Shown here: piece after piece, positions 4,690-63,572 of the stretch | Numbering within the stretch: position 1 is the stretch's first letter | How the letters are laid out: every line of letters starts with the position of its first letter | DNA from: Patescibacteria group bacterium | Lineage (GTDB): Bacteria; Patescibacteriota; Saccharimonadia; UBA4664 | Length of the DNA stretch: 64,000 nt | Direction: 5' to 3' | Assembly: GCA_028288925.1 (NCBI GenBank) | Contig: JAQGHG010000012.1 | Coordinates: 77,762 to 141,761, forward strand | Translations under genes and position numbers: made by a program | Notes under the pieces: generated by a model | The model's input: only the letters and a program-made list of their open reading frames with translations | What the model was told of the DNA's origin: nothing | The model's database searches: none

Positions 4690-5759
4690 CTATTATTTGT
4701 GAGCTCGCCAATACGCAACGACAAGGCGGCGAGCAGCATGCTATGCTTACGCTCGCTCGAGGATTGGCTAAGCAGGCTCATGTGGATGTATTCAGCTACG
4801 CTCCGTCCCAGGGTCAAAAGCTCATAGCAAGCAAAATACCTCTTGGGCTTCGGCTGCTACCATTTATTCGTGATATGTTCTTCCTGCCTATTATCGGGAG
4901 GTTCCTTCTGCGGAAGATTGATCAAGATTACGATGTTATTCAGGCGACATCATCTACTCTCGCGGCTTTTTATCGGCCGCGTACCCGGTTTATCGTTACT
5001 TGTCATATTATCCGCTCTCAAAAAATCCCACTTTTCTACCGCCTACCCAAATACTGGCTTTTATTCAATCCACTTACTTATCGGATCATGAAGCGGCTTG
5101 AGCGGCGAGGTCTGCGTAATGCCGATAACGTGGTCGTAATTCGCGAGCATCAACGCCAATTTCTTATTGACGAACTTAAAATATCGCCCAAAAAGATCAC
5201 TCTCATACCCAACGGTGTCGATGTGGAGATCTTTAAGCCACAAGCCACACCCAAGAAGAATCAGGTAGTTTTCGTCGGCCGTACGACCTTCCCAAAAGGC
5301 TTCAATTTGCTTGTTGACGCGGCTAATTATATCGAGGGCGATATTATCGTCATCACCCAAAAAGGCGCCTCTGAACTACTGGCAAGAGCTCAGAAAACAC
5401 CCAATATGCAAATCATCAAAAGTGCGCCGCCGGAAGTTGTAGCCGGACACTACGCGGAGTCTAAGGTATTTATCTTACCTTCTCTCGACGAGGAGCAGCC
5501 CCTCACCGTTCTGGAGGCACTCGCCTGCGGGCTTCCAATAGTGGTGTCCGAGAAAGCTGCGTCGGATGTGTTTACCAGAGAGAGTACCGTTGAAGGGAAG
5601 GTTCTCGATTATCTTCGGCCAGATACCATCGCTGAAGCGGTTAATTATTACCTGAGAACCAGCATGGGGACCATAAAAAGAAACCGCCAGATTGTTGTTG
5701 ACCAATATTCCCTCGAAAATAACCTGAACCATTACCTGAGGCTTTATGAAGATAGTTAA
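4679..5759 (+). CDS. GT4 (group 1) glycosyltransferase
   Basis: VFVGRTTFPKG...EEQPLTVLEALACGLPIVVS motif; probable GTG start at 4679 (VRIAIICELANT), overlapping the upstream stop. Confidence 0.75.
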
Positions 5760-8836: not shown

Positions 8837-10257
8837 ATAAAAACAAAAAGTGGTCACGGCTAACGGCCCTTGCGGGGTCCATGGTGTTAGTCGGATATAT
8901 CTTATTCGTCAACGCGATGCCATTAGGCGTGAGCTACGATTTCAAGCCAGGAAATAAAAATGTGTCATCGCTCGGCCCTGGAACCCGGGTTGAGACGCTA
9001 AATAGAAGTCAACGCCTCATCCAGGATCTCGCGTACTTCACGTCTAATATGACATTTCTTTTTGAACATGCACGAGTTCGCATGGCAATAAAAACTAGCG
9101 ATGTAAACCAGGTGGCTTGGTTGGGGTATAAAGACCAGCAAGCTTGGCATTACAACAATCAAGTTATAAGCGCGCCATTCATAGATTCATTAGGCTGGGC
9201 CAGGGTGGGAGAAGGGCCCTACCTCTATCAGAAACAACCAAGCTATAAGTCCTACGCCGATTTTATGGCTAATACACCTAGGGACAAATTTATAGGGGTC
9301 TATAACTACAGCGATACCGCGCTACGCCAGAGCAAGGCGGACATGTCAGGTTACAAGCCCGCCACCGCTGAAACGGTCGTCTCTACTCCTATCCGTGGCA
9401 AAGTTACAATGTACGCTTACCTCGCCAATGAGCCGTTTCGCCTCGCCGTCGAAAAAAGAGACCTTAATTGGTACAAAGATCCTGACGTTGCTACGGTAAA
9501 AGTCTACAAAGATACGGACAAAGTCTTCGAGACGACAATAGGTGACGACGGCAACACAAACGACGATCATCATCCAGGAGCCTCGCAACAAGCTGACATT
9601 AAGAACCCCGGCCCCGGACTGCCTGAAGCGGGTGTTTACAAAATTGTAATAGACGCACCGGACGACTCGATCATCACCAAAATCGCCACCAACATGCATA
9701 AGATTACGTTTGAAGGTCCTCTCCACCTGGCAGGCAACCATGAGGTTTACGGCGATGTTGTACCGCCGACCGCATCGGTTGACATCTTCACGAATGCCAC
9801 CGATGTCTCGGCGCAAGCATTCTCTAGGTCGGCTCAAACGCTCATAGCAGGTGGAAAATCAGTACCATTAACTCAATCACAAACGTTCATCAATCTCGCG
9901 TCCACGCCACAGATTAGTGCCATCAAGGCCCCCAAGAGTGACATCGTCATCAATGGCGTCGGCTACTTCGCCTTCAGCCAAGATCAATTCTTTGAACCCA
10001 CCCCCTATCACATTCTCCAAATCACCGGCCCCAAAGACCTCGAAAAAGTCGACTATGTACTCACCAACTACAAACCGCCCAAACAGCTCGGCGACGGCTG
10101 GGTAGAGGTGGAGCGGGAGTTTGATCTTAGCGGCGCCGTGGTGCAGAAAGGTAAGCTTAGTTGGGTTATTAGCGCGCCGGGACTGGCCGATAACAAGCGC
10201 AGTATCGAGATTAAGGATATTCAAATGACGCTCACTAAGAAAGGCTGGTTTAAGTAA
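8833..10257 (+). CDS. membrane-anchored extracytoplasmic protein of unknown function
   Basis: ATG at 8833 overlaps the upstream stop (ATGA); N-terminal TM anchor WSRLTALAGSMVLVGYILFV; about 475 aa. Confidence 0.5.
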   Translation: MNKNKKWSRLTALAGSMVLVGYILFVNAMPLGVSYDFKPGNKNVSSLGPGTRVETLNRSQRLIQDLAYFTSNMTFLFEHARVRMAIKTSDVNQVAWLGYKDQQAWHYNNQVISAPFIDSLGWARVGEGPYLYQKQPSYKSYADFMANTPRDKFIGVYNYSDTALRQSKADMSGYKPATAETVVSTPIRGKVTMYAYLANEPFRLAVEKRDLNWYKDPDVATVKVYKDTDKVFETTIGDDGNTNDDHHPGASQQADIKNPGPGLPEAGVYKIVIDAPDDSIITKIATNMHKITFEGPLHLAGNHEVYGDVVPPTASVDIFTNATDVSAQAFSRSAQTLIAGGKSVPLTQSQTFINLASTPQISAIKAPKSDIVINGVGYFAFSQDQFFEPTPYHILQITGPKDLEKVDYVLTNYKPPKQLGDGWVEVEREFDLSGAVVQKGKLSWVISAPGLADNKRSIEIKDIQMTLTKKGWFK

Positions 10258-10661
10258 TGGCGCGGATTACCGATATAGCTGTGGCTCTCGTGGGTGGCGC
10301 CTATGTACTCTTCGCGCCTGGTCTGGTGCTGTCGTTTGTGTTCTTCCGCCGCGACGCCATCGATTGGCTGGAGCGGGTGGCCCTGAGCTTTGCGCTATCG
10401 GTTGCCGTGGTGCCGCTGGTGGTGTTTTACTTGAACATGATAGGGATAAAACTGACGCGTCTAAGTGTGGTGCTGGAGGTTGCGGCGATAATGGTGGTGA
10501 GCGGGGGAGTGGTATGGTGGCGAGTCCGCCGGGTACAGCCGCGTAAGCCGCCGGCCGCCAAGCCCGCGCCGGTGATGGGACCAGAGCCCAGCGTCCCGCC
10601 AACCAAGCCCGCGCCCCGGCGGCGGTCCATGGACGCGGTAGGACGGAGGAACCATGAGTAA
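10257..10661 (+). CDS. small polytopic membrane protein with Pro/Lys-rich C-terminus
   Basis: 134-aa ORF; ATG overlaps the upstream TAA; 3-4 hydrophobic helices. Confidence 0.4.
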   Translation: MARITDIAVALVGGAYVLFAPGLVLSFVFFRRDAIDWLERVALSFALSVAVVPLVVFYLNMIGIKLTRLSVVLEVAAIMVVSGGVVWWRVRRVQPRKPPAAKPAPVMGPEPSVPPTKPAPRRRSMDAVGRRNHE

Positions 10662-20165: not shown

Positions 20166-23100
20166 GTGCATCCACTTCTAGCCGAACTCAATGAGCCCCA
20201 GCGCAAAGCCGCCGAAACCACCGATGGCCCCGTCTTAATATTGGCCGGCGCCGGCTCGGGCAAGACCAAGGCCCTCACGCACCGCATTGCCTACCTGGCC
20301 GCCGAGAAGCATGTCCGGCCGCAAAGCATCCTGGCCGTCACCTTCACCAACAAAGCCGCCGGCGAGATGCGCGCGCGCGTCCTCAAGCTGCTCAGCCTCG
20401 ACCCCAACAATCGTGGCTATTTTCCGTTTATCGGCACCTTTCACTCGATCTGTCTGCGGCTGTTGCGGCGCGAAGCCACCGAGATCGGCCTGGCCTCCAA
20501 CTTCCTCATCTTCGACGCCGCCGACACCCAATCCGCCATCAAGCGCGCCATGCGCCAAACCAACATCGACGACAAACAATTCACCCCCAACCTCATCCAC
20601 GGCCTCATCTCCAGCGCCAAAAACGAGCTGGTCGATGCCGCGGCCTACGCCAAATTCGCCACCGGCAAGGCCCAAGAAGCCGCCGCCAAAGTCTATCCCG
20701 TCTACCAAGCCACCCTCCAAGAAGCCGGCGCGCTCGACTTCGACGACCTCATCTTCCGCACCGTCAAAATGTTCAAAGACTATCCCGAAATTCTCAAAAA
20801 ATACCAAAATCAATTCCAATACATTATGGTCGACGAATACCAAGACACCAACCATGCCCAATATCAAATCACTAAGCTTCTGGCCCAAGGCCACCACAAC
20901 ATTTGCGTAGTAGGGGACGACTGGCAATGCCTGGTTCCAGGGACCTTGATCGAAACCCCCGCTGGCCCCAGGAAAATTGAGGCCATTACCAGGGGAGACC
21001 TCGTCACCTCGGCGAGCGGTTACGGCCGGTCCGGACAGTTTAAAGTCTTAGCTCAAAAAAAATTCCAATACCAAGGCGAGATAATCCACATTGAGACCGC
21101 TTCGGGCAAGGAGCTGGCATGCACGCCCAATCATCTGCTCTTCTCCCGGTGGAGCCAAACGGACGCCTATTTTGTCTATCTGATGTATTCGCAAGACAAG
21201 GGCTATCGCATTGGTGTCGCTAAAGGCACAAGATTTGATGGCAAAAAGCACGACACCGGCCTAAGGATACGTGCCAACCAGGAACGCGCCGACCGAATGT
21301 GGGTGATCAAAGTTTGCGTCAACCGGGCAGAAGCCATGTACAACGAAGCTCTCTTCGCGTACAAGTATGGAATTCCCATGTTAGTCTTCCGTGCCTTTAG
21401 CAACCGGGCCATGAAATTTGATCAAAAGTACATTGACGCCATCTATGAGGAGATCGACACCGAAACCAGAGCCAAACAGCTAATGACAAGGCTTGGGTTA
21501 GCCTTCGACTATCCGCACTTTGTACCCAGCGCCACCACCAGAAATGACATAAAGCGAGTAGTTGTAAACGTGGTTCTTTTTGGTGATAAGCGCATTACGC
21601 GACAAAGCCCGTGGTCAGCCAGTAGAATTTCCGCCAACACTACCGTCCGCCACGATATTGAAGTGTTTGAGAAGCTTGGACACACGGTAAGAATCGGTCG
21701 GTCGGGCACGTTCCGGGCCGAGATTCACAACCTCGACTATGGTCAAATCGAGCAGACACTTGAGCAGCTAAAGGAAGGTGCGGCCAACCAGCTACAAATC
21801 CACAAATACGCGTTTCTAACCGATAACAAATTCTCGTACATGCCAGCCAGCCAAATACATCTCGGCATGATGGTCCCCACAATCCAGGACGGTGTTATAA
21901 CGGAAGACCGGATAGTCGCGGTCAGTCGGAGCCATTACTCAGGGCCGGTATACGACCTAGATATTGATAAAGTTCATAATTACATCGCCTCAGAGCTGGT
22001 TGTGCATAACTCCATATATTCTTGGCGCGGCGCCAATTTCCAAAACATTCTCGACTTCGAAAAAGACTATCCCGACACCGAAGTCATCAAGCTTGAGCAA
22101 AATTATCGCTCCACCAAGCGCATTCTCGATGCTGCCCACGCTATTATCACCAAAAACCGCACCCGCAGCGACAAAAAACTCTGGACCGACCGCGGCGACG
22201 GCGCCGGCATCAGCATCGTCAACGTCTACAACGAAATCCAGGAAGCCGAGACCATCGTGCGCAAAATCCAAGAGCTCAAACTCGCCGAAACGCGCGAGCT
22301 CTACGACTTCGCCATCCTCTACCGCACCAACGCCCAATCCCGCTCGCTCGAAGAAGCCTTCCTGCGTGCCAACCTGCCCTACAAAATCGTCGGCGGCACG
22401 CGCTTCTATGAGCGCAAAGAAATCAAAGACGCCCTGGCCTACCTGCGCTTCGTCTACCAGCCCGACGACATGGTGAGCTTCGGCCGCATCATCAACCTCC
22501 CGCCACGCGGCCTCGGCGACGTCAGCCTCCAACGCCTCGAGTCCTGGCGCCGCACCCAGACCATCAGGGCAAATAACGGGGAGGAGCGCAGCGGGGTAGA
22601 GGCGCAGGGTGGCTCATCTGTGCCAGCCAGTGTAGGTTCAGATACCGGCTCCACCGAAGAGACGGATGGCGTTCGCTGGCCAGCAGATGAGCCACCCGAA
22701 GCCCAAGCGAATAAGCTGCGCCCCATGTCCCTCCTCGAGGCCTGCCGCCAAGCCGACCGCGCCCCCGGCCTCCAGGCCCGCGCCGTCAACGCCCTCCAAA
22801 CCTTTGCCCTGCTCATCGACGGCCTGCGCCAAGAGGCCAAAACCCTCGCCGTCGGCCCACTGCTGAGCCTCATCATCAAGCGCTCCGGCTACCTCGCCCA
22901 CCTCGACGATGGCTCCATCCAGGCCGCCGACCGCATCGAAAACGTCAAAGAGCTCCTCTCTGTCGCCGAGGCCTACAACGAACTCCCGCTCCAAGGCTTC
23001 CTGGAAGAAATCGCCCTCATCTCCGACATCGACAACTATTCCGAGTCCACCGACGCCGTCACCCTCATGACCCTCCACGCCGCCAAAGGCCTCGAGTTTC

Positions 23101-23621
23101 CCGTGGTCTTCATCCCCGGCGCCGAAGAGGGCATCTTCCCGCATTCCCGCGCACTCTTCGACGGCGAGCAGATGGAAGAAGAGCGCCGCCTTTGCTACGT
23201 CGGCATGACCCGGGCCAAAGAACGCCTCTATATGCTCTATGCCAACTCGCGCCTGCTCTACGGCTCCACCAACCACAACCCACCCTCACGCTTCCTCCTG
23301 GAAATCCCTGCCGAGCTTCAGGCCGATGACAACGAATGGAGCGCCGCTTCCCGTACCGCCGCGGCCGGCCACGGCGCCGGCGCCGCCAGCTGGTCGCCCA
23401 CAGCCATGCGCGCCACCGGCCCCACCACTGAAGCCTCCGCCGCCGCCCACCGCGAAGCCATGCTCGGCCTCAGTCTGGCCCCCGGCGACCGCATCCACCA
23501 CGCCAAATTCGGCGACGGCATCGTCAGCTCCATCTCCGGCGACGAAGTCACCGCCGCCTTCGAAGGCATCGGCTCCAAACGCCTCAGCCTCAGTTTCGCC
23601 CCGATCGAAAAGGTGGAATAA
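20166..23621 (+). CDS. uvrD: ATP-dependent DNA helicase UvrD/PcrA carrying an intein in helicase motif III
   Basis: Walker A AGAGSGKT; DEYQDTN; VVGDDWQ / SIYSWRGAN split by the intein; C-terminal VGMTRAKE and Tudor-like tail; 1151 aa against roughly 740 aa expected. Confidence 0.9.
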   Translation: MHPLLAELNEPQRKAAETTDGPVLILAGAGSGKTKALTHRIAYLAAEKHVRPQSILAVTFTNKAAGEMRARVLKLLSLDPNNRGYFPFIGTFHSICLRLLRREATEIGLASNFLIFDAADTQSAIKRAMRQTNIDDKQFTPNLIHGLISSAKNELVDAAAYAKFATGKAQEAAAKVYPVYQATLQEAGALDFDDLIFRTVKMFKDYPEILKKYQNQFQYIMVDEYQDTNHAQYQITKLLAQGHHNICVVGDDWQCLVPGTLIETPAGPRKIEAITRGDLVTSASGYGRSGQFKVLAQKKFQYQGEIIHIETASGKELACTPNHLLFSRWSQTDAYFVYLMYSQDKGYRIGVAKGTRFDGKKHDTGLRIRANQERADRMWVIKVCVNRAEAMYNEALFAYKYGIPMLVFRAFSNRAMKFDQKYIDAIYEEIDTETRAKQLMTRLGLAFDYPHFVPSATTRNDIKRVVVNVVLFGDKRITRQSPWSASRISANTTVRHDIEVFEKLGHTVRIGRSGTFRAEIHNLDYGQIEQTLEQLKEGAANQLQIHKYAFLTDNKFSYMPASQIHLGMMVPTIQDGVITEDRIVAVSRSHYSGPVYDLDIDKVHNYIASELVVHNSIYSWRGANFQNILDFEKDYPDTEVIKLEQNYRSTKRILDAAHAIITKNRTRSDKKLWTDRGDGAGISIVNVYNEIQEAETIVRKIQELKLAETRELYDFAILYRTNAQSRSLEEAFLRANLPYKIVGGTRFYERKEIKDALAYLRFVYQPDDMVSFGRIINLPPRGLGDVSLQRLESWRRTQTIRANNGEERSGVEAQGGSSVPASVGSDTGSTEETDGVRWPADEPPEAQANKLRPMSLLEACRQADRAPGLQARAVNALQTFALLIDGLRQEAKTLAVGPLLSLIIKRSGYLAHLDDGSIQAADRIENVKELLSVAEAYNELPLQGFLEEIALISDIDNYSESTDAVTLMTLHAAKGLEFPVVFIPGAEEGIFPHSRALFDGEQMEEERRLCYVGMTRAKERLYMLYANSRLLYGSTNHNPPSRFLLEIPAELQADDNEWSAASRTAAAGHGAGAASWSPTAMRATGPTTEASAAAHREAMLGLSLAPGDRIHHAKFGDGIVSSISGDEVTAAFEGIGSKRLSLSFAPIEKVE
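20928..22010 (+). other. intein (361 aa) inside uvrD
   Basis: starts CLVPGTLIETPAG (block A); TPNH (block B); ends VYDLDIDKVHNYIA...VVHN followed by +1 Ser (blocks F/G); the flanks rejoin to GDDWQSIYSWRGA. Confidence 0.8.
22607..22697. repeat. palindromic repeat element, copy B, in-frame inside uvrD: 14-bp outer inverted repeat GGGTGGCTCATCTG / CAGATGAGCCACCC
   Basis: shares the conserved core with copy A; encodes roughly GGSSVPASVGSDTGSTEETDGVRWPADEPP within a non-conserved UvrD loop. Confidence 0.65.
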
Positions 23622-33173: not shown

Positions 33174-33695
33174 ATGAAACTCCTCGACGTCATCAACTAC
33201 CAAAACCCCCAAGCCACTGACCTCAAGGAGTTGGGTAAACACCACTTCCGCGTCCGTCGCCGCGCCGTCCGCGCCGTCGCCACCGATGCCGAAGGCCGCG
33301 TTCACATGCTCTCGGTCAGCGCCGACGGCGGCTACCTCAAGCTCCCCGGCGGCGGCGTCGATCCCGGCGAGGAGCTCATCGAGGCGCTGCATCGAGAAGT
33401 CATGGAGGAGCTCGGCTACCTCATCGCGCCGGGCGATCCCATCGGCCGCGTTCTGCAGTACGACCTCGAGGACAGCTTCCTCCAGGAATCACTCTGCTAC
33501 CACGCCACCATTACCGGTGGCGCCGGCGAGCCCACTTATACCGACGAAGAAGCCGCCGACGGCTTTAATCCCATCATTTTCTCCAGCCTTGACCACGCCA
33601 TCAAAGCCGTAGCGCATTTGCCGCACCACAGCGCCAAAATTCATGCCATCAATCGCCGCGAGCTGGTCTTTCTGAAGGCTGCCCAAAGGAACTAA
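33174..33695 (+). CDS. NUDIX hydrolase
   Basis: Nudix box GGGVDPGEELIEALHREVMEELG. Confidence 0.75.
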   Translation: MKLLDVINYQNPQATDLKELGKHHFRVRRRAVRAVATDAEGRVHMLSVSADGGYLKLPGGGVDPGEELIEALHREVMEELGYLIAPGDPIGRVLQYDLEDSFLQESLCYHATITGGAGEPTYTDEEAADGFNPIIFSSLDHAIKAVAHLPHHSAKIHAINRRELVFLKAAQRN

Positions 33696-34394: not shown

Positions 34395-34981
34395 CGGTCG
34401 TTCGCTCAAGGTCGGACCTTGATATTTGACAGACTACCCTGTAACCTGTCAAATATGCCTAGCCCCAATGCAGTCAAAGAGTCTCTCCGGGATGGCGTCT
34501 ACCACGTCTACAACCGCGGCGTTGAGCGGCGCGACATCTTCATGGATCATCACGGTTATCAGCGGTTTAAACTGCAGATGCGCACGTTTCTGGAGCGCGA
34601 ACTAAACCATTTCCATTTACTTGTCCAGCGAACCGATAACGAGGCGATGAGCCGGTACATTAAGCGGCTCGTGGTGGGCTATGTTATGTATTTCAACAAA
34701 AAATACCACCGTGTAGGGCCACTGTTCCAGGGCAAATACAAGGCTGTCCGGGTGATCGGGCCCCGGCAGCTCATGGAAGTTTCGCGCTATATCCACCTGG
34801 ATCCTGAGCGCGCCGGTCTCGGCTGGCGTCAACACCAGCACTCAAGTATCGCCAGCTATACCCGCGAGGCGGGCGCCGATAACATGGTCGATCCCGGTCC
34901 GGTGCTCGAGCTTTTCGATATACCAGAGGATTATAAGCGATATATGTCAATTGGCGAGGTCCGACCTTGAGCGAACGACCG
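34395..34981 (+). mobile_element. IS200/IS605-family or RAYT-like HUH transposase gene flanked by perfect 24-bp inverted repeats (REPtron-like unit)
   Basis: left CGGTCGTTCGCTCAAGGTCGGACC (34395-34418) is the exact reverse complement of right GGTCCGACCTTGAGCGAACGACCG (34958-34981). Confidence 0.7.
34455..34970 (+). CDS. HUH (Y1) transposase, IS200-like / REP-associated tyrosine transposase-like
   Basis: YHVYNRG, HuH motif HFHLLV, catalytic Tyr context FQGKYKAV, YIHLDPERAGL; about 171 aa. Confidence 0.8.
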   Translation: MPSPNAVKESLRDGVYHVYNRGVERRDIFMDHHGYQRFKLQMRTFLERELNHFHLLVQRTDNEAMSRYIKRLVVGYVMYFNKKYHRVGPLFQGKYKAVRVIGPRQLMEVSRYIHLDPERAGLGWRQHQHSSIASYTREAGADNMVDPGPVLELFDIPEDYKRYMSIGEVRP

Positions 34982-54856: not shown

Positions 54857-56674
54857 ATGTCGCAGGTTAAGCCCCATTACACCAAACAGACACTCAGTCT
54901 TTTTTGGCAACATATCAAGCGGTATCCCCAGCATCTCTGGCCGTTACTGTTCACGATTCCCGCTACCGTTCTGGTGGGGGAGTTTCTGCGCCCCTACGTT
55001 ACGGCCGATATTCTCAATCGCCTCAGTACCGGCTCCTATGATCACCACAACCTCTTAGCGAGCTTTGGCTCCCAGCTGCTGATCTTCGCGGCGGCTAGCA
55101 TCTTCTATGGCGTCATCGGCTGGCGCGTCACCAACTGGATCTCGTGGCGGCTTGAGCTCAAGGTAATGCGCGAGCTCACGCAACGTGTCTTCGGTCACCT
55201 CTTGGCCATGAGCCCCAATTTTCATGCCAACCGGTTCGGTGGCTCGCTAGTCTCGCAGACCAATAAACTCAACGGCGCCTACATCCGTTTGATGGACTCG
55301 ACCGTTTTCGCGGTAATTCCCCTCGTAATATCGGTGATAGCTACGGTTGTAATCTTGGTGCCGCGAGCTCCCCTCTATGTGGCCGCGCTGCTCGTGATCT
55401 CAGCGGTTTATCTCGTGGGTACCATTCACTTTTCCCGCGCGGTCCGAGACGCCAACGCCGAAGAAGCCGCCGTCCAGAGCCGCCAAACCGGCTACCTATC
55501 CGACAGCATCACCAATGTCTTCGCGATTAAAACCTTTGCGGCGGCGGATTACGAAGGCAAGCGCTTCTGGAAGATGAGCGGACTCGTGCAAGAAGCCGGC
55601 CACAAATCCATGCGGGCCACCCTCAAGCGCGAAAACTATGCCAGCCTCCTTACACAAACTCTAGGCATCGTGGCGCTCTGTATCGCCGTAATAGGTGTGG
55701 GCGTACTCAAGGCCGACATCGGCACCATCTTCCTGGTCGTCAGCTACACCGCCTCCATGGCCGAGCGCCTGTGGAACTTCCAGAATGTCCTGCGCCAGTA
55801 CAACCGGGCTATGGGTGACGCCAGCGACATGGTAGAGATTCTACAGATTAAGCCGGGCATTCAGGACCCGGCCCGGCCGGAGCCGTCGCGCATGCGCCAG
55901 GGCGCCATCACCTTTACCGGCGTAACGTTCACCCACGGCGACGCCGACGAAACCCTCTTCGAAGACTTCAGCCTCAAGATTAAGCCCGGCGAAAAGATTG
56001 GCTTGGTTGGGCATTCCGGCTCCGGCAAGACCACCCTCACCCGGCTGCTGCTGCGTTTCTCCGACCTCGATAGCGGCCATATCACGATCGACGGCCAAGA
56101 TATCGCCGCCGTCACCCAGGACGACCTGCGCCGGGCTATTAGCTATGTTCCGCAGGAGCCGATGCTCTTCCACCGTACCCTGCGCGAAAACATCGCCTAT
56201 GGCAAGCTCGACGCGCCGGAAGAGGAGATCATGCGGGCGGCCACGCGCGCCCACGCTCACGAGTTCATCGGCAAAATACCCAAAGGCTATGAGACGATGG
56301 TGGGCGAGCGGGGTATCAAGCTTAGTGGCGGCCAACGCCAGCGCATCGCCATCGCCCGGGCCATGCTCAAGGACGCGCCCATTCTGGTGCTCGACGAAGC
56401 CACTAGCGCTCTCGACAGCGAATCCGAACATCTCATCCAAGACGCGCTCTGGAGCCTCATGGAGGGCCGCACCGCCATCGTCATCGCTCACCGCCTCAGC
56501 ACCATCCAGCACATGGACCGGATCATCGTGCTCGAAGACGGCCGCATCACGGAGCAAGGCTCGCACGCCAAGCTCCTAGCCAAGGGCGGCGCCTACGCCA
56601 AGCTCTGGTCGCGCCAGTCGGGCGGCTTCATCGACGGCGACGAAGAGGCGGCAGCGGAAGACTCCAAGAGCTAG
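54857..56674 (+). CDS. ABC transporter permease/ATP-binding protein (MsbA-like exporter)
   Basis: 6 TM N-domain; Walker A GHSGSGKTT; signature LSGGQRQRIAIARA; Walker B ILVLDEATS. Confidence 0.88.
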   Translation: MSQVKPHYTKQTLSLFWQHIKRYPQHLWPLLFTIPATVLVGEFLRPYVTADILNRLSTGSYDHHNLLASFGSQLLIFAAASIFYGVIGWRVTNWISWRLELKVMRELTQRVFGHLLAMSPNFHANRFGGSLVSQTNKLNGAYIRLMDSTVFAVIPLVISVIATVVILVPRAPLYVAALLVISAVYLVGTIHFSRAVRDANAEEAAVQSRQTGYLSDSITNVFAIKTFAAADYEGKRFWKMSGLVQEAGHKSMRATLKRENYASLLTQTLGIVALCIAVIGVGVLKADIGTIFLVVSYTASMAERLWNFQNVLRQYNRAMGDASDMVEILQIKPGIQDPARPEPSRMRQGAITFTGVTFTHGDADETLFEDFSLKIKPGEKIGLVGHSGSGKTTLTRLLLRFSDLDSGHITIDGQDIAAVTQDDLRRAISYVPQEPMLFHRTLRENIAYGKLDAPEEEIMRAATRAHAHEFIGKIPKGYETMVGERGIKLSGGQRQRIAIARAMLKDAPILVLDEATSALDSESEHLIQDALWSLMEGRTAIVIAHRLSTIQHMDRIIVLEDGRITEQGSHAKLLAKGGAYAKLWSRQSGGFIDGDEEAAAEDSKS

Positions 56675-56705
56675 CCGAGCCGGGGTTTCTCCACGCACCA
56701 TCCGA

Positions 56706-56745
56706 TTTTACTTAGATTTCCGATGCATCGGAAATCTAAGTAAAA
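56706..56745. repeat. 40-bp perfect palindrome TTTTACTTAGATTTCCGATGCATCGGAAATCTAAGTAAAA
   Basis: read directly; lies between the ABC transporter stop and tRNA-Ala. Confidence 0.55.
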
Positions 56746-56818
56746 TGGTGAGTCCTGTCCCCACTGGGCGTAGTGCGGATTGACGAACTGCCCGCGACCA
56801 GGCACAATAGACCAGTTC

Positions 56819-56895
56819 GGGGCATTAGCTCAGCTGGCTAGAGCGCTGCATTCGCATTGCAGAGGTCAAGAGTTCGAATCTCTTATGCTCCACCA
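56819..56895 (+). tRNA. tRNA-Ala (anticodon CGC), CCA-encoded
   Basis: GGGGCAT acceptor stem with G3:U70; anticodon stem CTGCA/TGCAG, loop TTCGCAT; T-arm GGTCAAGAGTTCGAATCTCTT; 3' ACCA. Confidence 0.88.
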
Positions 56896-56924
56896 TTTTA
56901 GTTTCTTTTACTTCTTTTTAGTTT
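56885..56924 (+). repeat. direct repeat DR1 (40 nt: tRNA-Ala 3' end ATGCTCCACCA plus TTTTAGTTTCTTTTACTTCTTTTTAGTTT), identical to 57463-57502
   Basis: read directly; each copy is followed by a GAGCC-GNRA-GGCTC hairpin plus T-run. Confidence 0.75.
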
Positions 56925-56965
56925 TCATTAAGAGCCGTGAGGCTCTTTTTGATATACTCATGCAT

Positions 56966-57434
56966 ATGGAAATTATAGACATAGTAGATTTAGGCGATAA
57001 TGTTATCGGGTCGGCCGAAAAGTCGGATGTTTTGGGGCCAAGGATTAACCTGCCGTGTCTCATTTATCATGATTCAAAATGATGCCGGTGAATTTTTCTT
57101 ACAGCAGCGCAAGTCAACTAAGAAAACGTACCCTTTATATTGGTCTGGTGCGGCTGCGGGCCACGTCGCAAGTGGCGAAACGTATGAGCAGGCTGCCCTG
57201 CGAGAATTAGCCGAAGAACTCGGCGTATCAGTGAAACTTCAAAACATTGGTAAGCAATATTCTAAAGATGATAAAGAATTCGTAAGCTTCTTCATTGGAA
57301 AGAGCAACGGCCCATTTAAGCTCGAGGAAGATGCTATCGAAAAAGCTGAGTTCTTCTCCTTGGAACGATTAAAGAATCAAACCACGGAGATAAAGGTAAC
57401 CTCCTGCCTACAAGCTGCACTCTTGCTGATTTAG
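56966..57434 (+). pseudogene. NUDIX hydrolase gene with apparent frameshift (cassette 1)
   Basis: the N-terminus MEIIDIVDLGDNVIGSAEKSDV...(stop at 57082) continues in another frame as ...RVSFIMIQNDAGEFFLQQRK...Nudix box GHVASGETYEQAALRELAEELGV; shift near the GGGG run around 57035. Confidence 0.5.
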
Positions 57435-57462
57435 CACAAGCTCAGCGCTAACAGCGCCCACA

Positions 57463-57502
57463 ATGCTCCACCATTTTAGTTTCTTTTACTTCTTTTTAGT
57501 TT
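57463..57502 (+). repeat. direct repeat DR2, 40/40 identical to DR1
   Basis: read directly. Confidence 0.75.
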
Positions 57503-57553
57503 GAGTTAGTTTTCCCTTAAGAGCCGCGAGGCTCTTTTTGGTATCATAGCCCT

Positions 57554-58154
57554 ATGACGAAACAAGCAACCATTCACGCCTATGACCGCTACTCGGATAT
57601 TTACGACCGAGAAGTAATAGATTTTTGGGCTAATTTTCCTACATCAACTATCGAGGCATTTCTGCAAAGCATCTCGGGCAAAAAGATTCTGAATGTGGGC
57701 AGCGGTAGCGGACGAGACGCGTTGCTGCTACGCCAGCACGGATTGGATGTGGTTTGCGTTGATGGTTCCGAAGAAATGGTCTGCCACGGAGCATCTGGGT
57801 TTCAAAAGCCACGCCCAAACATTTGATGTGCTGGAATTCCCAAAGAACTCCTTTGACGGAGCCTGGGCCTATACATCACTTATTCATGTTCCTCCAGCCG
57901 AGGCTAGCGCGACAATTAACAAGATAGCCACATTTCTACGGCCCAAAGGAACGTTGCTCACCGGAATTATTATTGGCAAGGGTTCCAAAACGGTAGAAAG
58001 AGAATCGATGCCAGGCGTCAAACGATTTTTTCAGTATTACCAGCCTGATGAAATAGCCTCGCTTGTAGAATCGGCAGGCTTTAAAATGGTATTCCAAGAA
58101 GAATATCAACCTCATAGCACGGTCTATCTAAACCAGGTTTACGAACTGGCATAG
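57554..58154 (+). pseudogene. class I SAM-dependent methyltransferase gene with apparent frameshift (cassette 2)
   Basis: SAM motif ILNVGSGSGRD...LDVVCVDGSEEMV in frame 1 continues in frame 2 (...HLGFKSHAQTFDVLEFP...); shift near 57780. Confidence 0.55.
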
Positions 58155-58191
58155 CCACGAGTCGCTGAGACATCGCCACGTAGCGTGGCGT

Positions 58192-58224
58192 TAACAGCGC
58201 ACACAATGATCCACCATATTTTAG
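58192..58224 (+). repeat. degenerate copy DR3 (TAACAGCGCACACAATGATCCACCATATTTTAG), similar to the sequence at 57449-57479 overlapping DR2
   Basis: about 29/31 matches to the DR2-flank, read directly. Confidence 0.5.
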
Positions 58225-58432
58225 ATAATTTCTATCAGAAGCCAAAACCAGCTTTCCTGTTTTAATAGAAACTGGAGTTATTTTTGGGTAGCTAGCCCCT
58301 CAAAGAGATAAAAGCGAATTCAAATCCTATCGATCGGCTCACTCTCGAAGATTATGCCCTACGTTGCCCTCCAGAACCTAGCTTTGGTACCCTCGTCATA
58401 CGTGGCTTGACGGGATCTGATATTATTTTTAC

Positions 58433-60160
58433 ATGGCCCATAAACCTAAAAAGTTTCGGCAGAAAACGGACGCAATACTCGCCAGTAGGTCGGTCACGGC
58501 CACAACTCATGAGCTTACCGATGTACGAATCATACGTAGCCGGTGGTGGCAGCTACGGCCGCCGTTTTGGTTGGCGGTAGCGGTAATTATACTGGTTGGT
58601 TTTGCGGTATATTTCTCAGGTTTATCAAATGACTTCGTATTAGACGATGCCCGGCAGATCGTCAATAACCCCTCGATCCAGTCAGGAACAAATTGGGGAC
58701 AGCTATTTAGTGGCAGCACTGGCTATTCCGGGTACGTCGACGGCAAGCTCATCGGCGCCTACTACCGCCCATTGATGATGGTCTCGTATTCCTTTATATA
58801 CTCAATGTTCGGTCAAGATCAGGTCGCGTTTCATGTCATTCAACTCTCATTACACATCGCCGTAGCCGTTGTTCTGCTCATGTTTCTCCGCTATACTTTT
58901 AAGCCTGTTCTGGCGCTTGGCTTGGCGTTAATTTTTCTCGCCCATCCTGTCAATAGCCAATCAGTATTCTACATCGCTTCACTACAAGAGCCGCTCTATA
59001 TGCTATTCGGGCTATTGGCTCTGTGGCTGCTATTAAAGTTTGACTCAAAGAAGAGCCTCGTGGCCGTTGCGGTCTGTCTGTTTGTGTCGCTCCTCGCCAA
59101 AGAGTCAGGCATCTTGTTTGTTGTCATGTCGGCGGTTTACTTGTTCATATACAATCGCCAGCGGTTATACACATTCCTGGTGCTCATGGCCTTGCCGCTT
59201 GTCGTATACGTTGCGCTCCGCACCCACGCCCTCGGGCTACCTCACAATCCTCACCTTGCTCAAATTGATGATCTCTCTATTTGGGGCCGCCTAGCATCAA
59301 TGCCGGCCATTCTTTTCTGGTATATATCAGTTTTCTTCTTACCGTTCCAGTTCGCTCACGCATATTACTGGACCGTACCGACACTCTCCATTACAGGTTT
59401 TTGGCTACCGTTATTGGCTGATAGTCTCTCCATTGCAGCATTGTCGTACCTGACCGCTGTAGTTAAGCGAAGGTTACCAAACGCATATTACCGGACCTAC
59501 TTATTCTTTGGGATTTGGTTTGCTCTAGGGATGATGCTGGTTTCGCAAGTCTTCCCACTTGATCTGACTGTCAGCCCGTCATGGTTTTATTTTCCAATCA
59601 TCGGGCTGCTAGGTATGCTTGGCATTGCTTCGATGCTGATCCGGTGGCCTCGGCTTCCGGGCTACGTACCAATTATCGTTATCTCTGTTATTATTGGGCT
59701 GTTAAGCATGAGGACGGCGGTCAGGGGGTTTGATTGGGTCAATGACACTACCTTGGCTGCCCGGGACGCTAAACTCTCACCCGATGACTACAACGCGCAA
59801 TTTGAAATTGCGCACGGTCTAGTACTAAGGGGTAAGTTTAATGAGGCGAGGCCATATGCCCAGCGAGCAGTAGAACTCTACCCAACCGCCGTTAACTATG
59901 AGTTATTGGCGGACATCTGCTTATGGAGTGGCGACATCCAATCTAATCGCGCTACCATTAAAAGTGGCCTCAAACACTATCCCGGCCATCCAGCATTGTG
60001 GCTGGATCTGGCCATTATTGATGAGAACAGCGGCCTCCAGGATGAGGCGAAGGACGCCATCGCTCAGGCCTATAGACTAGCGCATACCTCGGGCATGGAA
60101 AGCTACTACACGAGCATCATGAATGGTGAGCACATTAATGTCTCGCCGGTCAGCAACTAA
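58433..60160 (+). CDS. TMTC / GT39-like (DUF1736-type) membrane glycosyltransferase with C-terminal TPR repeats
   Basis: FVLDDARQIVNNP motif after the first TM; about 11 TM helices; C-terminal TPR-like YNAQFEIAHGLVLRGKFNEARPYAQRAVELYP. Confidence 0.65.
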   Translation: MAHKPKKFRQKTDAILASRSVTATTHELTDVRIIRSRWWQLRPPFWLAVAVIILVGFAVYFSGLSNDFVLDDARQIVNNPSIQSGTNWGQLFSGSTGYSGYVDGKLIGAYYRPLMMVSYSFIYSMFGQDQVAFHVIQLSLHIAVAVVLLMFLRYTFKPVLALGLALIFLAHPVNSQSVFYIASLQEPLYMLFGLLALWLLLKFDSKKSLVAVAVCLFVSLLAKESGILFVVMSAVYLFIYNRQRLYTFLVLMALPLVVYVALRTHALGLPHNPHLAQIDDLSIWGRLASMPAILFWYISVFFLPFQFAHAYYWTVPTLSITGFWLPLLADSLSIAALSYLTAVVKRRLPNAYYRTYLFFGIWFALGMMLVSQVFPLDLTVSPSWFYFPIIGLLGMLGIASMLIRWPRLPGYVPIIVISVIIGLLSMRTAVRGFDWVNDTTLAARDAKLSPDDYNAQFEIAHGLVLRGKFNEARPYAQRAVELYPTAVNYELLADICLWSGDIQSNRATIKSGLKHYPGHPALWLDLAIIDENSGLQDEAKDAIAQAYRLAHTSGMESYYTSIMNGEHINVSPVSN

Positions 60161-60271
60161 CTAGTGTAACAAAGCTCGTACAAACAACTTAAAACTCTTG
60201 TGTCTATTGACAAACGTATTCTTGGGGTAGAACCTAAAAGCAACATCAAAACTCGAAAGGTCCTAACAAAA

Positions 60272-63109
60272 ATGCGCCCCAGAATGAGTAATATCTTTTT
60301 TAGGTTAGCAATACCTGGAGTGCTAGCTTTTTTGTTTGCCGTCTTTAACCACGTCGGAACTGCATCAGCTGCAGTATGCGATCCGAGCGCGTCGGTTCAC
60401 ATTACGGGCAGTATCACAAGCCAGAATGGGGCCGGAGTAGGAAACGTAACTGTGACGGCTAATGCGGCGGGCGCAAGCACGGCAGAGTATGGTCCATGCT
60501 TCTCGCTTACCAATGGTACGTATGAGATTGATGTGGCGCCGGGCACGTATGATTTACATTTCAATCCGCCAAGTACCAGTAATCTCAATCCTGTCATCGA
60601 CACTAACTATACGGTGATGACAGACCAAGTGCTCAATATCCAGTTCGCCCCCGTCACCCGTACCTTCTCGGGCGTCCTGCGTGACCAGACCGGCGCTCCC
60701 ATTCCGGGTGTCTCTCTGGAGCTGGATACGAGTTCCGGCAGCACAGCCAAGAGCGTCTGCACTGACGCCAACGGCAACTTTAGCATGACGGTCTCGGCCG
60801 GAGCATATGTTCCCTACGTTTCCTGGGCATCCTACTACTGCGGCGGTGCTACAAACATATTCACCAACAAGTTTAATACCATTGCCCTCAGGGGCACTTC
60901 CGCTGACATCGACCTCACAAATAGCGACATGGCCCAGGACCTCCAGCTTAGTATTGCTACAGTCACAGTCACGCTAAAAGATGCCAACGGCAACCCCATA
61001 AGCGGGTCTAACGTCACTGCTCAGCCAGGCACAAGTACGAATACACCGTTACTGCCAGGAGGCCCAGGTGAGCTCAAGCCCATCGACGCAAACTTTGCCG
61101 CCAGCCATGCTACTACAGACCAGAACGGCACCGCCCAATTACCGGTATTCAAAGGCCTCTCGTTTGCCCAAAATCAAGGCAAACAGTCGCTAGGAGATAA
61201 CCTCTGTGGCTCGTCGAGTGCTGGCCCAATCTGCATAGATTCTCCGCTAACGGCCAGCGGGGATGTGGCCGTCGTTCTCCAGCGAGCTCCTTCTACTCCC
61301 GGCACACCCACAAGCCTCTCCGCTACTACCCCTACCCCCACAGCACCAGTTCTTACCTGGAACGCCGTAACTGGCGCCGCCAACTACCGCGTCTACCGCG
61401 ACGGACTGCAAACCGGCACAGCTACCACCCCCAACTTTGTCGACTCAGCTCTTAATACGAGCGGTTCATACAACTACACCGTTACCGCCGTGAATGCCCA
61501 GGATATCGAAAGCGCTAGTTCCGCACCGGTAACTGTCATTTACGACATCACCCCACCCGCGGTCATCAATGCCGCTGTAAGCCCCACTACTGTCGATCAA
61601 GGCGGCAGCACTATCCTCAGCGCTGACGTCACCGATAATCTCACCGGCGTCACAAGCGCGGAATACTTCGAAGGCACCGACCCTGGGCAAGGGAGTGGTA
61701 CCGCTATGACCATTAGTGGCGACGCAGCCACCGCCACTGTCGGTAGCACGCTCAACCCAGGTATCCACACACTCAGCGTTCGCGCCAAGGACGGTGTCGA
61801 CAATTGGAGTAATCCCGTTACCGTAACCCTCACCGTTAAACTTGCCGCACCCGCAGGTCTCCATGCTGCTACTCCCACTAACAATCCCAGCCTTAGTTGG
61901 AGCGCCGTCATCGGCACCAACCATTACGACATCTACCGCGATAGCACAAAAGTCGGCTCAGTCGCTACAGTCAGCTACACCGATGCCGCAGCCACCGAGG
62001 GTAGTCGCACCTACTACGTCGTAGCTGTCACCGCCGACAATGTCGTAAGCGATCCCTCTAGCACCATTACGATAGTAATCGACAAAACCAACCCCACCAT
62101 CACTACCGCCGTTACGCCTACTCCCAACGCTGCCGGCTGGAACAACACGAGCGTCACAGTCACTTTTACCTGCTCCGACGCTTCCGGTGTTGCCTCCTGC
62201 ACCTCACCCATCGCCTTCGTCTCTGAAGGCAAGAACCAAACCACTACAGGCACCGCCACGGACAATGCTGGCAATACCGCTACCGTCTCAACGACCATTC
62301 GCATCGACAGAACCGCCCCCACTGTCTCAAGTCCCACCTGGTCCGCTAACCCCATACCCGCCAACGCCACTACCACACTCACAGTCCCCACAGCCGACGC
62401 TCTCTCTGTGGTAACCGGTGGTGAGTACTTCATTGGCACCGATCCCGGACAGGGGAGTGGTACGGCCATGACCTACAGCGCCGGTAATCTCTCGGCCACA
62501 CTTGGCTCAAGCCTGTCAGTTGGCGTGTACGACATCGGCGTTCGAGCCAAAGATACCGCTGGCAACTGGAGCCTCACTACCACCACAATGCTTGTCGTCA
62601 ACGACCCCACTACGACTCTGGGTATCTCCGGTAAGAACAAAAAAGACCTTGTACCCAGACTCGCCGCTGGCGACATCCTGCCCGGTCTCACCAGCCCCAC
62701 CCAAACTGATGCCGCCGATTATGGCATGACCGTCAGCTACAAGAACGGTGTCCTCGACACTCACAACGCCTTCCACCTCACCTACGCCACCGGCGCTAAT
62801 TGTGGTAAGCCCACCGCCCAAAACTGTCATACCTTCACGCTTGATGCTACCAGCTTCGATTGGCTCATCGTTGACCAAGCCAACAATTCCCGAGGTCGGT
62901 TCCAGGGACTCGCCACTCTTACCATTGATGGCGTTACTACCGCCAATCCCTTCACCATAATGAGCATCGACGGCGACCGTTTAACGCCCAACGCCAACGA
63001 CTCCCTCGTTCTCAAAGTCTATGCGCCTGGTGCCAACCCTGCCACCACCGCGGCTATTTATCAGGCCTCTGGGTCTATGGCTAAGGGGAACGGTGTAAAG
63101 ATTCAGTAA
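60272..63109 (+). CDS. large secreted surface protein with prealbumin-like, fibronectin-III and Ig-like repeat domains
   Basis: signal peptide MRPRMSNIFFRLAIPGVLAFLFAVFNHVGTASA; two FN3-like units (LTWNAVTGAANYRVYRDG, LSWSAVIGTNHYDIYRDS); two roughly 100-aa repeats sharing EYFxGTDPGQGSGTAMT...VRAKD..NWS; the track starts at 60200. Confidence 0.65.
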   Translation: MRPRMSNIFFRLAIPGVLAFLFAVFNHVGTASAAVCDPSASVHITGSITSQNGAGVGNVTVTANAAGASTAEYGPCFSLTNGTYEIDVAPGTYDLHFNPPSTSNLNPVIDTNYTVMTDQVLNIQFAPVTRTFSGVLRDQTGAPIPGVSLELDTSSGSTAKSVCTDANGNFSMTVSAGAYVPYVSWASYYCGGATNIFTNKFNTIALRGTSADIDLTNSDMAQDLQLSIATVTVTLKDANGNPISGSNVTAQPGTSTNTPLLPGGPGELKPIDANFAASHATTDQNGTAQLPVFKGLSFAQNQGKQSLGDNLCGSSSAGPICIDSPLTASGDVAVVLQRAPSTPGTPTSLSATTPTPTAPVLTWNAVTGAANYRVYRDGLQTGTATTPNFVDSALNTSGSYNYTVTAVNAQDIESASSAPVTVIYDITPPAVINAAVSPTTVDQGGSTILSADVTDNLTGVTSAEYFEGTDPGQGSGTAMTISGDAATATVGSTLNPGIHTLSVRAKDGVDNWSNPVTVTLTVKLAAPAGLHAATPTNNPSLSWSAVIGTNHYDIYRDSTKVGSVATVSYTDAAATEGSRTYYVVAVTADNVVSDPSSTITIVIDKTNPTITTAVTPTPNAAGWNNTSVTVTFTCSDASGVASCTSPIAFVSEGKNQTTTGTATDNAGNTATVSTTIRIDRTAPTVSSPTWSANPIPANATTTLTVPTADALSVVTGGEYFIGTDPGQGSGTAMTYSAGNLSATLGSSLSVGVYDIGVRAKDTAGNWSLTTTTMLVVNDPTTTLGISGKNKKDLVPRLAAGDILPGLTSPTQTDAADYGMTVSYKNGVLDTHNAFHLTYATGANCGKPTAQNCHTFTLDATSFDWLIVDQANNSRGRFQGLATLTIDGVTTANPFTIMSIDGDRLTPNANDSLVLKVYAPGANPATTAAIYQASGSMAKGNGVKIQ

Positions 63110-63572
63110 TACGATATCGGTTACGTACTCAAGGTGAAATCGTCCGATATCCCCTCGACTCGATCCGACCACAATCTCGCAACTACCATTATGAGATAGG
63201 ATCTTGGAATTGGGTAATCGCATCTCCGGCCTGCGCGCCATAAACTACATCATGCTCGACAGGATGTCGCGTATTCATGACAGTCCGCAAGTTCGATTAA
63301 TAAGAAGATTTGAAACGGATAAAAACCGAGGTATCATGATGCTGACTACTCGCTGTCGGTACTGGCGCTTTCATCCAAGAGTTCGCGTGTCTCTTTTGCC
63401 TCGTATTCAGGATCATCGCCAAAAGTTATATTAACGTCTCCCATGCTCCACCATGGAATCATCCAACAAAGAGAGAGCCTTCGCGGCTCTTTTTTGTTAT
63501 TTATGACAAAGCTCCTCGACTTTCTCAGCTTATACTTAATAAATACTAGCAAAAACACAGGAGGTAGCCGAT

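Follow-up and report, generated by a model that had tools for sequence, protein, structure and literature searches.

Genes have accumulated behind a tRNA gene in the DNA analysed here, a 64,000-nt stretch of contig JAQGHG010000012.1 from a Patescibacteria group bacterium (the window), and copies of the tRNA end stand between them. What put them there? Our analysis leans, though not strongly, towards integrase-less mini-cassettes that an unlinked recombinase inserted site-specifically, one behind the other, at the 3′ end of tRNA-Ala, in an array that is now decaying. By sequence affinity the source organism is a Saccharibacterium, and the best relatives of the ABC transporter flanking the tRNA gene (up to 60% identity) belong to metagenome-assembled genomes (MAGs) of Candidatus Saccharibacteria/Saccharimonadales. 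To our knowledge, few mobile elements have been characterised in the tiny genomes of the Candidate Phyla Radiation (CPR)/Patescibacteria, and accessory-gene acquisition in these bacteria is poorly understood.

The tRNA-Ala array and its junctions

The single tRNA of the window, tRNA-Ala(CGC), is encoded on the plus strand (56819–56895); it is intact and includes the CCA end (ARAGORN; Rfam RF00005, 66.9 bits). Its terminal 11 nt (56885–56895), which comprise the 3′ acceptor strand, the discriminator and CCA, form the core ATGCTCCACCA, here called O; X stands for the module downstream of a core and P for the arm upstream of it. With at most one mismatch allowed, the core was matched four times in 64 kb, always on the plus strand (56885, 57463, 58206 and 63443), and shuffled sequences never gave four matches. 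The copies at 57463 and 63443 are exact, while the one at 58206, ATGATCCACCA (O*), differs by one substitution, C to A. The first two copies open a longer repeat. As the first-pass annotation of this DNA had reported, a 40-mer starting with the last 11 nt of tRNA-Ala (56885–56924) recurs at 57463–57502 with 40 of 40 positions identical, where none is expected in shuffled sequences; once an 11-nt insertion in copy 2 is allowed for, junctions 1 and 2 remain alike through the hairpin (88%). The degenerate third copy noted by the annotation was likewise recovered (58188–58220 against 57445–57477, 88%). The annotation had, however, let the array end at 58224 with two cassettes; with the fourth core at 63443 the feature comprises three segments and runs from 56819 to 63495.

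The island proper (56896–63453; 6,558 bp) consists of a 578-bp NUDIX unit, a 743-bp methyltransferase unit and a 5,237-bp segment with two intact surface/membrane genes. Read from the tRNA gene, the order is tRNA-O-X1, NUDIX-P1-O-X2, methyltransferase-P2-O*-X3, segment 3-P3-O-X4 and native DNA (Table 1). The GC content of the three segments is 0.433, 0.464 and 0.523, against 0.60 upstream and 0.60 from 63573 on; for the island as a whole it is 0.51 compared with 0.60 in the flanks. This shift coincides with the first and last core copies, and DNA of native GC content carrying a secreted-protein gene begins at about 63573. GC content at third codon positions (GC3) is 0.47–0.60 in the island genes and about 0.75 in the neighbouring genes.

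The X modules carry hairpins, T-runs and predicted promoters. Hairpin 1 (AAGAGCC-GTGA-GGCTCTT, 56930–56947) and hairpin 2 (AAGAGCC-GCGA-GGCTCTT, 57519–57536) are each followed by a T-run, just as the annotation had described them with their different loops, and both were detected as terminator-like. Hairpin 4, AAGAGAGAGCC-TTCGC-GGCTCTTTTTT, begins 15 nt past core copy 4 (63469–63495) and includes AGAGCC-TTCGC-GGCTCT, followed by a T-run. The pattern AGAGCC-N3-6-GGCTCT occurs three times in the window, only after copies 1, 2 and 4 (0.02 expected). X2 comprises 29 nt identical to X1, the 11-nt insertion, hairpin, T-run and an extended −10 element, whereas X3 is a degenerate module with a TTTTAG motif, weak hairpins and a T-run.

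Extended −10 elements were predicted by consensus match in X1 (TGATATACT, 56950–56958, 7 nt ahead of the NUDIX ATG), in X2 (TGGTATCAT, 57539–57547, 6 nt ahead of the methyltransferase ATG) and in X3 (TGATATTAT, 58418–58426, 6 nt ahead of the ATG of the 575-aa gene). Boxes of the form TGnTAnnnT, unaccompanied by a Shine-Dalgarno sequence, precede the start codon by 5–7 nt, mostly 6 nt, at 18182, 36184, 38890, 43428, 48648, 57554 and 58433, and most cassette genes of the related contigs L030, L089 and L090 (see below) have the same spacing. Since the first five of these boxes belong to native genes, the arrangement TGnTAnnnT-N6-ATG is the usual style of the host and not peculiar to cassettes. 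An extended −10 element as close to the ATG as 6–7 nt would give a leaderless mRNA, which suggests that leaderless transcription is widespread in the source organism.

The element-side P arm is confined to the internal junctions. An 18-nt arm, GCGYTAACAGCGCMCACA, is conserved ahead of copies 2 and 3, with P1 (GCGCTAACAGCGCCCACA) and P2 (GCGTTAACAGCGCACACA) identical at 16 of 18 positions, and the pattern CACAATGNTCCACCAT is found at only two sites of the window, the junctions of these copies. The tRNA copy of the core has no 5′ P arm.

One gene lies between each pair of repeats, a NUDIX hydrolase (PF00293, 4.5e-19; GC 0.45, GC3 0.47) and a class I S-adenosylmethionine (SAM) methyltransferase, in agreement with the annotation; both are frameshifted. 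The NUDIX gene is broken by a +1 shift near a T4G4 run (57030–57040), and its repaired 155-aa product is 62% identical, end-to-end, to full-length homologues of about 165 aa. In the methyltransferase gene, 2 nt are deleted after 57781, outside homopolymers, relative to the closest homologue, P0060 on contig L090, to which the repaired 200-aa product is 73% identical. Because all remaining long open reading frames (ORFs) of the window are intact, both frameshifts look like real lesions and not like widespread sequencing error; judged from the reading frames, the island copies of the two genes are pseudogenes. The array in the source genome is thus decaying, with both cassette genes frameshifted, core 3 substituted and X3 degenerate. 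Segment 3 encodes a 575-aa membrane protein with C-terminal TPR repeats (GC 0.50, GC3 0.57), whose relatives are named protein O-mannosyl-transferase or GT39 and whose sequence is the same as that of NCBI MDB5178703.1, encoded in a ‘Patescibacteria group bacterium’ MAG, and a 969-aa secreted protein with Ig-like and carboxypeptidase-regulatory-like repeats (GC 0.56, GC3 0.60). The genes between the repeats are unrelated, and hence the array is not a duplication of one unit. Methyltransferase homologues at 53–56% identity stand in ordinary or variable chromosomal contexts without repeats, so that the cargo gene family by itself is not diagnostic.

Table 1. Coordinates of the tRNA-Ala array, counted from the first nucleotide of the window
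Feature	Position	Strand	Basis
tRNA-Ala(CGC)	56819..56895	+	ARAGORN, Rfam
X1: spacer, hairpin, T-run, predicted extended −10	56896..56958	+	
NUDIX hydrolase gene, frameshifted	56966..57434	+	
P arm 1, CTCAGCGCTAACAGCGCCCACA, abutting core copy 2 on its 5′ side	57441..57462	+	
Core copy 2 (57463–57473) and X2	57463..57547	+	
Class I SAM-methyltransferase gene, disrupted	57554..58154	+	
P arm 2, CGTAGCGTGGCGTTAACAGCGCACACA, abutting core copy 3 on its 5′ side	58179..58205	+	
Core copy 3 (58206–58216) and degenerate X3	58206..58426	+	
575-aa membrane protein gene, intact	58433..60160	+	
969-aa secreted protein gene, intact; probable start 60273	60200..63109	+	
333-nt stretch with short ORFs only; left arm of copy 4	63110..63442	none	
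Core copy 4 (63443–63453) and terminator hairpin (63469–63495); distal end of the island	63443..63495	+	

Related arrays at other tRNA genes

An independent array with the same core was found on L090, a 43.8-kb Logan metagenomic contig (SRR30681687) that starts within the 3′ half of a tRNA-Ala gene (...GGTCAACGGTTCGATCCCGTTATGCTCCACCA). The T stem of this tRNA differs from that of the window by compensatory changes and the acceptor end is identical. About eight small plus-strand genes with a GC content of 0.44–0.50 follow, and then housekeeping genes at 0.55–0.61. Cores lie at 31 (the tRNA end), at 3235 and 4674 (exact) and at 3969 (one mismatch), and each of the three internal cores is preceded by a P arm of the window type (GTGCTAACAGACGACACA, GCGCTAATAACACACACA or GTGCTAACAGCGCACACA). 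When a hidden Markov model (HMM) was built from these three junctions alone, copies 3 and 2 of the window were its top two matches in 128 kb (E = 1.2e-6 and 6.8e-6), and they remained the top two after removal of the core columns. The methyltransferase unit is shared between the two arrays (73% identity at the DNA level over the ORF and 76% over arm plus core) but occupies a different array position on L090 and has different neighbours. The X hairpin is maintained in L090 through compensatory changes at three pairs, from which it is probably functional.

Arrays were also found behind tRNA-Lys genes. Where context existed, NUDIX homologues stood downstream of tRNA-Lys in four contigs (L030, L031/L032, L089 and L046), with partial-tRNA junctions evident in three. 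In L031/L032 the NUDIX gene directly follows tRNA-Lys(TTT) with the layout hairpin/TGGTATACT/ATG, as in the window, and is itself followed by an arm ending in GGCCCTCCA. In L089, which is L033 extended, at least six units of 0.4–0.75 kb stand behind tRNA-Lys(CTT), separated by ...AGTTGCRATAGCGTGCACGA-TGGCCCTCCA. The junctions of L046 and L034 belong to the same tRNA-Lys family; with a model built from L089 only, the L046 junction was the best match in 946 kb (E = 0.0047). Cargo at the related loci includes GNAT, APH, RibD_C, SRPBCC, GyrI-like, NUDIX and pterin dehydratase proteins, and the arrays of the window, L089 and L090 together hold about 15 units of 0.4–1.4 kb. The occurrence of similar arrays in other Saccharibacteria suggests that the locus is a small-cassette gene-capture site.

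Two further observations concern the junctions and tRNA ends. The arm before core copy 2 (57435–57462) aligns with 56822–56846, that is, positions 4–28 of tRNA-Ala comprising the 5′ acceptor end and the D arm (GCACAAGCTCAGC--GCTAACAGCGC against GCATTAGCTCAGCTGGCT-AGAGCGC), with p = 0.001 in a shuffle test. In L090, one junction aligns with tRNA-Ala in the same register with marginal significance (p = 0.04). The junction at copy 2 may represent an internally deleted copy of tRNA-Ala. The general form of this idea, in which every junction is an internally deleted tRNA copy with the D arm fused to the 3′ acceptor strand, was rejected, as tRNA-Lys and most other junctions tested gave no significant alignment. 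In other Saccharibacteria, a gene-less unit of about 185 nt stands behind each of tRNA-Pro(TGG), tRNA-Pro(CGG) and tRNA-Arg(TCG) (L021, 7412–7606 and 9493–9686; L094, 6322–6507). The unit contains a terminator and an arm of about 130 nt and closes with 16–23 nt copied from the 3′ end of the tRNA. Such units may be att sites without cargo or cassettes whose cargo was deleted.

Searches for the enzyme and for donors gave the following picture. Pfam scans of the window (non-overlapping ORFs of at least 90 aa, some overlapping ORFs and the short ORFs of 63110–63442) detected no tyrosine or serine recombinase and no DDE transposase, so that the annotation was right in listing no integrase; in 63110–63442, where an integrase remnant was sought, no Pfam family at all was matched even at E ≤ 1. 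The gene tables of five related loci (L030, L031, L089, L090 and L094) list no integrase. The sole transposase-like match of the window is a Y1_Tnp-like, IS200-like Y1 (HUH) gene at 34419–34970 (PF01797; a weak 23.9 bits), which lies among housekeeping genes. A similar gene is present in L094 (1397–2002), and a link to the cassettes could not be shown. In a blastn search of phage and plasmid collections with 56819–58300, only the tRNA itself was matched. Viral contigs contained no exact match to core plus X, arm plus core or the tRNA-Lys family motif, and Joint Genome Institute (JGI) metagenome contigs none to the exact arm-plus-core pattern. Neither the window nor the phage and plasmid collections nor the viral contigs yielded a related integrative and conjugative element (ICE) or integrative and mobilizable element (IME). 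Rfam reported the tRNA alone in 55000–61000 and no match in the L090 array. Exact queries of the assembly index with the NUDIX, ABC transporter and 575-aa proteins of the window gave no record.

Origin of the array and its surroundings

The first-pass annotation had proposed successive integrations at a tRNA attB with duplication of the att site. The anatomy and the GC boundary are as this proposal predicts, and the structure matches the expectation for conservative site-specific recombination at a tRNA 3′ end, with the tRNA regenerated and a copy of the crossover left distally. The site-specific mechanism itself is unproven, and we infer it, since no recombinase, circular form or empty site was seen. 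On our preferred reading, three foreign segments would have been inserted in succession into the last 11 nt of the tRNA-Ala(CGC) gene, giving an accretion array in which each insertion would regenerate an intact tRNA and leave an extra 11-nt core at its distal end. Each of the two small segments would be a mini-cassette, made up of a terminator hairpin, an extended −10 promoter, one ORF and a conserved 18–30-nt arm abutting the core, and its terminator would stop the tRNA transcript or that of the upstream unit. The likeliest chemistry would be conservative site-specific recombination, in which the core carried by a circular cassette recombines with its chromosomal counterpart. Because no recombinase is encoded in the array or within 56 kb upstream, the enzyme would have to come from another part of the genome or from a helper element. 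If insertion always took place at the tRNA, the NUDIX unit would be the youngest and the 5.2-kb segment the oldest; the latter could also be an older element of a different type. We infer that the intermediate is circular and that crossing-over falls within the core, and likewise the class of recombinase and the sequence in which the segments arrived.

Several findings weigh against this reading. Neither a recombinase nor an attP circle nor an empty attB was observed. P3, the left arm of copy 4, has no homology to P1 or P2, so that the 5.2-kb segment may be an element of another kind. The arms of the tRNA-Ala and tRNA-Lys families look alike by eye (AGCG..CAC.ATG), but this likeness failed a leave-out HMM test, in which the window sites reached only E of about 59. 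Within any one array the X modules are alike, and this holds for the window copy next to native DNA and, in L090, for the first and the last copy; yet when the window is compared with L090, X shows no relationship, not even in the orthologous methyltransferase unit. If cassettes simply brought X with them, this distribution would not be predicted; it calls for gene conversion, exchange of cassettes among closely related strains or some other mechanism. Moreover, a close relative in which presence or absence of the island could be scored was lacking: at 29 loci with relatives of the flanking ABC transporter (best 60%), no tRNA-Ala lay downstream and the downstream genes were absent.

Part of this pattern would follow from turnover without a dedicated site-specific enzyme, a possibility that we consider rather unlikely. 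The repeated linkers of 70–120 nt (arm, core and terminator/promoter) would be recombined by RecA, fed by natural transformation from related strains, so that genes are added, deleted and shuffled while linkers are homogenised. Saccharibacteria are naturally transformable, and the 40 identical bases of copies 1 and 2 are probably enough for RecA-mediated recombination. The array-specific, homogenised X modules just described fit this explanation, as do the L090 linkers at 3235 and 4674, which are 90% identical over both arm and X, and the failure to find a recombinase near any array; X also resembles the native tRNA terminator, which leaves room for homologous recombination or gene conversion. 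Homologous turnover, however, does not explain how each linker came by the terminal 11 nt of the tRNA, sharply bounded on the left at the acceptor strand, in two genomes with different T arms, nor why conservation between genomes extends to a short arm and not to the adjoining X. Its founding events would still require an insertion that regenerates the tRNA end.

The annotation had left a choice between decayed islands and cassette-like insertion. The L090 array, with the same core and P arm, and the tRNA-Lys arrays favour the latter, and it seems to us improbable that each segment is the relic of an ordinary integrase-bearing island or prophage which targeted the tRNA, lost its integrase and most genes, and accumulated by accretion. 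Such tandem accretion of decayed, integrase-less, att-flanked elements is well documented (PMC5704250; 10.1101/2020.12.28.424599). Both small genes being pseudogenes agrees with it, and so does the 5.2-kb segment, whose left arm differs and which contains 333 nt of non-coding debris. But repeated deletions would each have had to spare one ORF, its promoter, its terminator and both att arms, and this outcome would have to recur in about 15 units of 0.4–1.4 kb across the window, L089 and L090, while no integrase fragment was detected in any array. We argue that the small units are genuine cassettes and not separately eroded islands, because one-ORF units with full flanking modules occur in three arrays, the arm is conserved across genomes and the methyltransferase unit stands at different positions.

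Two further explanations carry very little weight. One is local tandem duplication of a tRNA 3′ end and its trailer by unequal crossing-over, followed by divergence, which we regard as highly improbable. In Escherichia coli tyrT, 178-bp trailer repeats, each with the 3′ end of tRNA-Tyr, are copies of one another. As in tyrT, terminal nucleotides of the tRNA are repeated downstream together with trailer sequence, the repeated block is tRNA end plus terminator, and a hairpin is common to copies 1, 2 and 4. Here, however, only junction modules of 70–90 nt are similar and the interiors are unrelated foreign genes of foreign composition, the arm 5′ of the core is missing from the tRNA copy, and another genome has homologous units arranged differently; the unrelated cargo excludes a tyrT-like duplication. 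Equally improbable is an assembly artefact in which a low-GC population was chimerically joined into a high-GC contig or a repeat was mis-resolved. The source is indeed a metagenome-assembled genome, and conserved tRNA genes can attract mis-joins. Yet DNA of native composition lies on both sides of the island in one contig, the shared 11–40 nt flank different genes, where a mis-resolved repeat would collapse such copies and not create them, and the same architecture is found in independent assemblies from other samples.

A broader proposal extends the insertion of mini-cassettes beyond this genome; we advance it only tentatively and doubt it more than we believe it. Saccharibacteria, and perhaps other CPR bacteria, may possess an integron-like gene-capture platform anchored on the 3′ ends of tRNA genes (tRNA-Ala, tRNA-Lys and possibly others). 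Its units would be leaderless single ORFs with their own terminator and promoter and a 3′ site formed by the arm and the last 10–11 nt of the tRNA, and an unlinked recombinase would insert and excise them, building arrays of accessory genes.

The surroundings of the array hold other features. Between the stop codon of the ABC transporter and tRNA-Ala, 72 nt upstream of the latter, lies a perfect 42-nt palindrome (56705–56746) with 21-nt arms and no loop (ATTTTACTTAGATTTCCGATG/CATCGGAAATCTAAGTAAAAT; −37.5 kcal/mol, z = −5.0), which has no T-run and whose half-site is unique in the window; it may be a protein-binding site or the terminator of the upstream gene. A second low-GC block (about 4600–10300; GC 0.45–0.51) encodes a GT4 glycosyltransferase, a PMT_2-like membrane glycosyltransferase, a polysaccharide flippase and a 491-aa protein of unknown function. 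It looks like a horizontally acquired glycosylation cluster, and its borders carry no tRNA and no core repeats. A UvrD/PcrA-type helicase of 1,151 aa (20166–23621) contains an intein, with Intein_splicing and Hint domains at about residues 255–615, between the N- and C-terminal helicase domains. A second NUDIX gene (33174–33695; 173 aa) is intact, lies in a region of native GC content and adjoins a gene for a pentapeptide-repeat protein.

Significance and comparison with known systems

What stands out in these results is a cassette format, miniature and ready for expression, that recurs at tRNA ends in a CPR phylum. A full-text search, of incomplete coverage, found no description of such arrays in Saccharibacteria or Patescibacteria. 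If our preferred reading is true, recurrent cassettes of this kind would be a concrete, testable route of gene flux in the phylum and a second answer, evolved independently, to the problem solved by integrons. The arm-plus-core motif provides a search handle with which the cassette pool could be catalogued and the recombinase sought by co-occurrence, and genetic studies of the few cultivable Saccharibacteria would profit from a defined insertion site that brings its own promoter and terminator. Should the arrays turn over by homologous recombination alone, they would still mark hotspots of accessory-gene exchange.

Among integrons (PMC4889954), the likeness lies in co-oriented, mostly single-ORF units of 0.4–1.4 kb with a site-like 3′ sequence, in one fixed chromosomal insertion site and in cargo that modifies small molecules (NUDIX, methyltransferase, GNAT, APH, RibD_C and SRPBCC in L030, L089 and L090). 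The locus nevertheless fails every integron-defining feature tested. No intI-type recombinase was detected by Pfam in the array or in the 56 kb upstream. Paired attC motifs (RYYYAAC/GTTRRRY) are absent from all seven junctions examined, and folding gives short hairpins and the terminator only. Whereas integron cassettes are promoterless and depend on a common promoter, Pc, each unit here has its own predicted promoter, in units 1 and 2 after a terminator; and the array here is anchored at a tRNA 3′ end.

An IS200/IS605 element (Y1 HUH), which would contain tnpA, have similar subterminal hairpins at its two ends and lack a flanking direct repeat, was considered and rejected: the only Y1_Tnp-like gene is 22 kb away, the right arm GCGCTAACAGCGC bears no relation to the left hairpin (AAGAGCC..GGCTCTT), and an 11-nt direct repeat flanks each unit.

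Closer in structure are the cis-mobilizable elements (CIMEs), which are flanked by attL and attR, have no integration and transfer genes and derive by deletion from ICEs or IMEs (Pavlovic 2004; Bellanger 2011; reviewed in PMC5704250). Each unit of the array is att-flanked and free of recombination and transfer genes, as in a CIME. Shared, too, are insertion at a tRNA 3′ end, tandem units bounded by direct repeats of the tRNA end, the absence of integration genes and a mobility that would depend on a recombinase supplied in trans. CIMEs, however, are multi-kb remnants of ICEs or IMEs that lie beside, or are mobilised by, a related integrase-bearing element, whereas the present units have one ORF in 0.6–0.75 kb, with terminator and promoter; no parental element or integrase was found in the 64 kb, and the miniature format recurs in other genomes. 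Of the hallmarks of tRNA-targeting islands, insertion at a tRNA with a distal repeat and deviant composition are present, and an integrase of its own is not.

Tycheposons, the tRNA-proximal islands of Prochlorococcus, are kilobases long, carry their own tyrosine recombinase and a replication module and are flanked by partial tRNAs (10.1101/2020.12.28.424599). In the array described here no recombinase or replication genes were found, and the partial tRNA amounts to only 11 nt, accompanied by a conserved element-side arm. In other respects the two resemble each other: both occur in streamlined genomes and place cargo by tRNA genes, elements are separated by partial tRNAs, newer elements push older ones inward, and degenerate partial tRNAs are left scattered.

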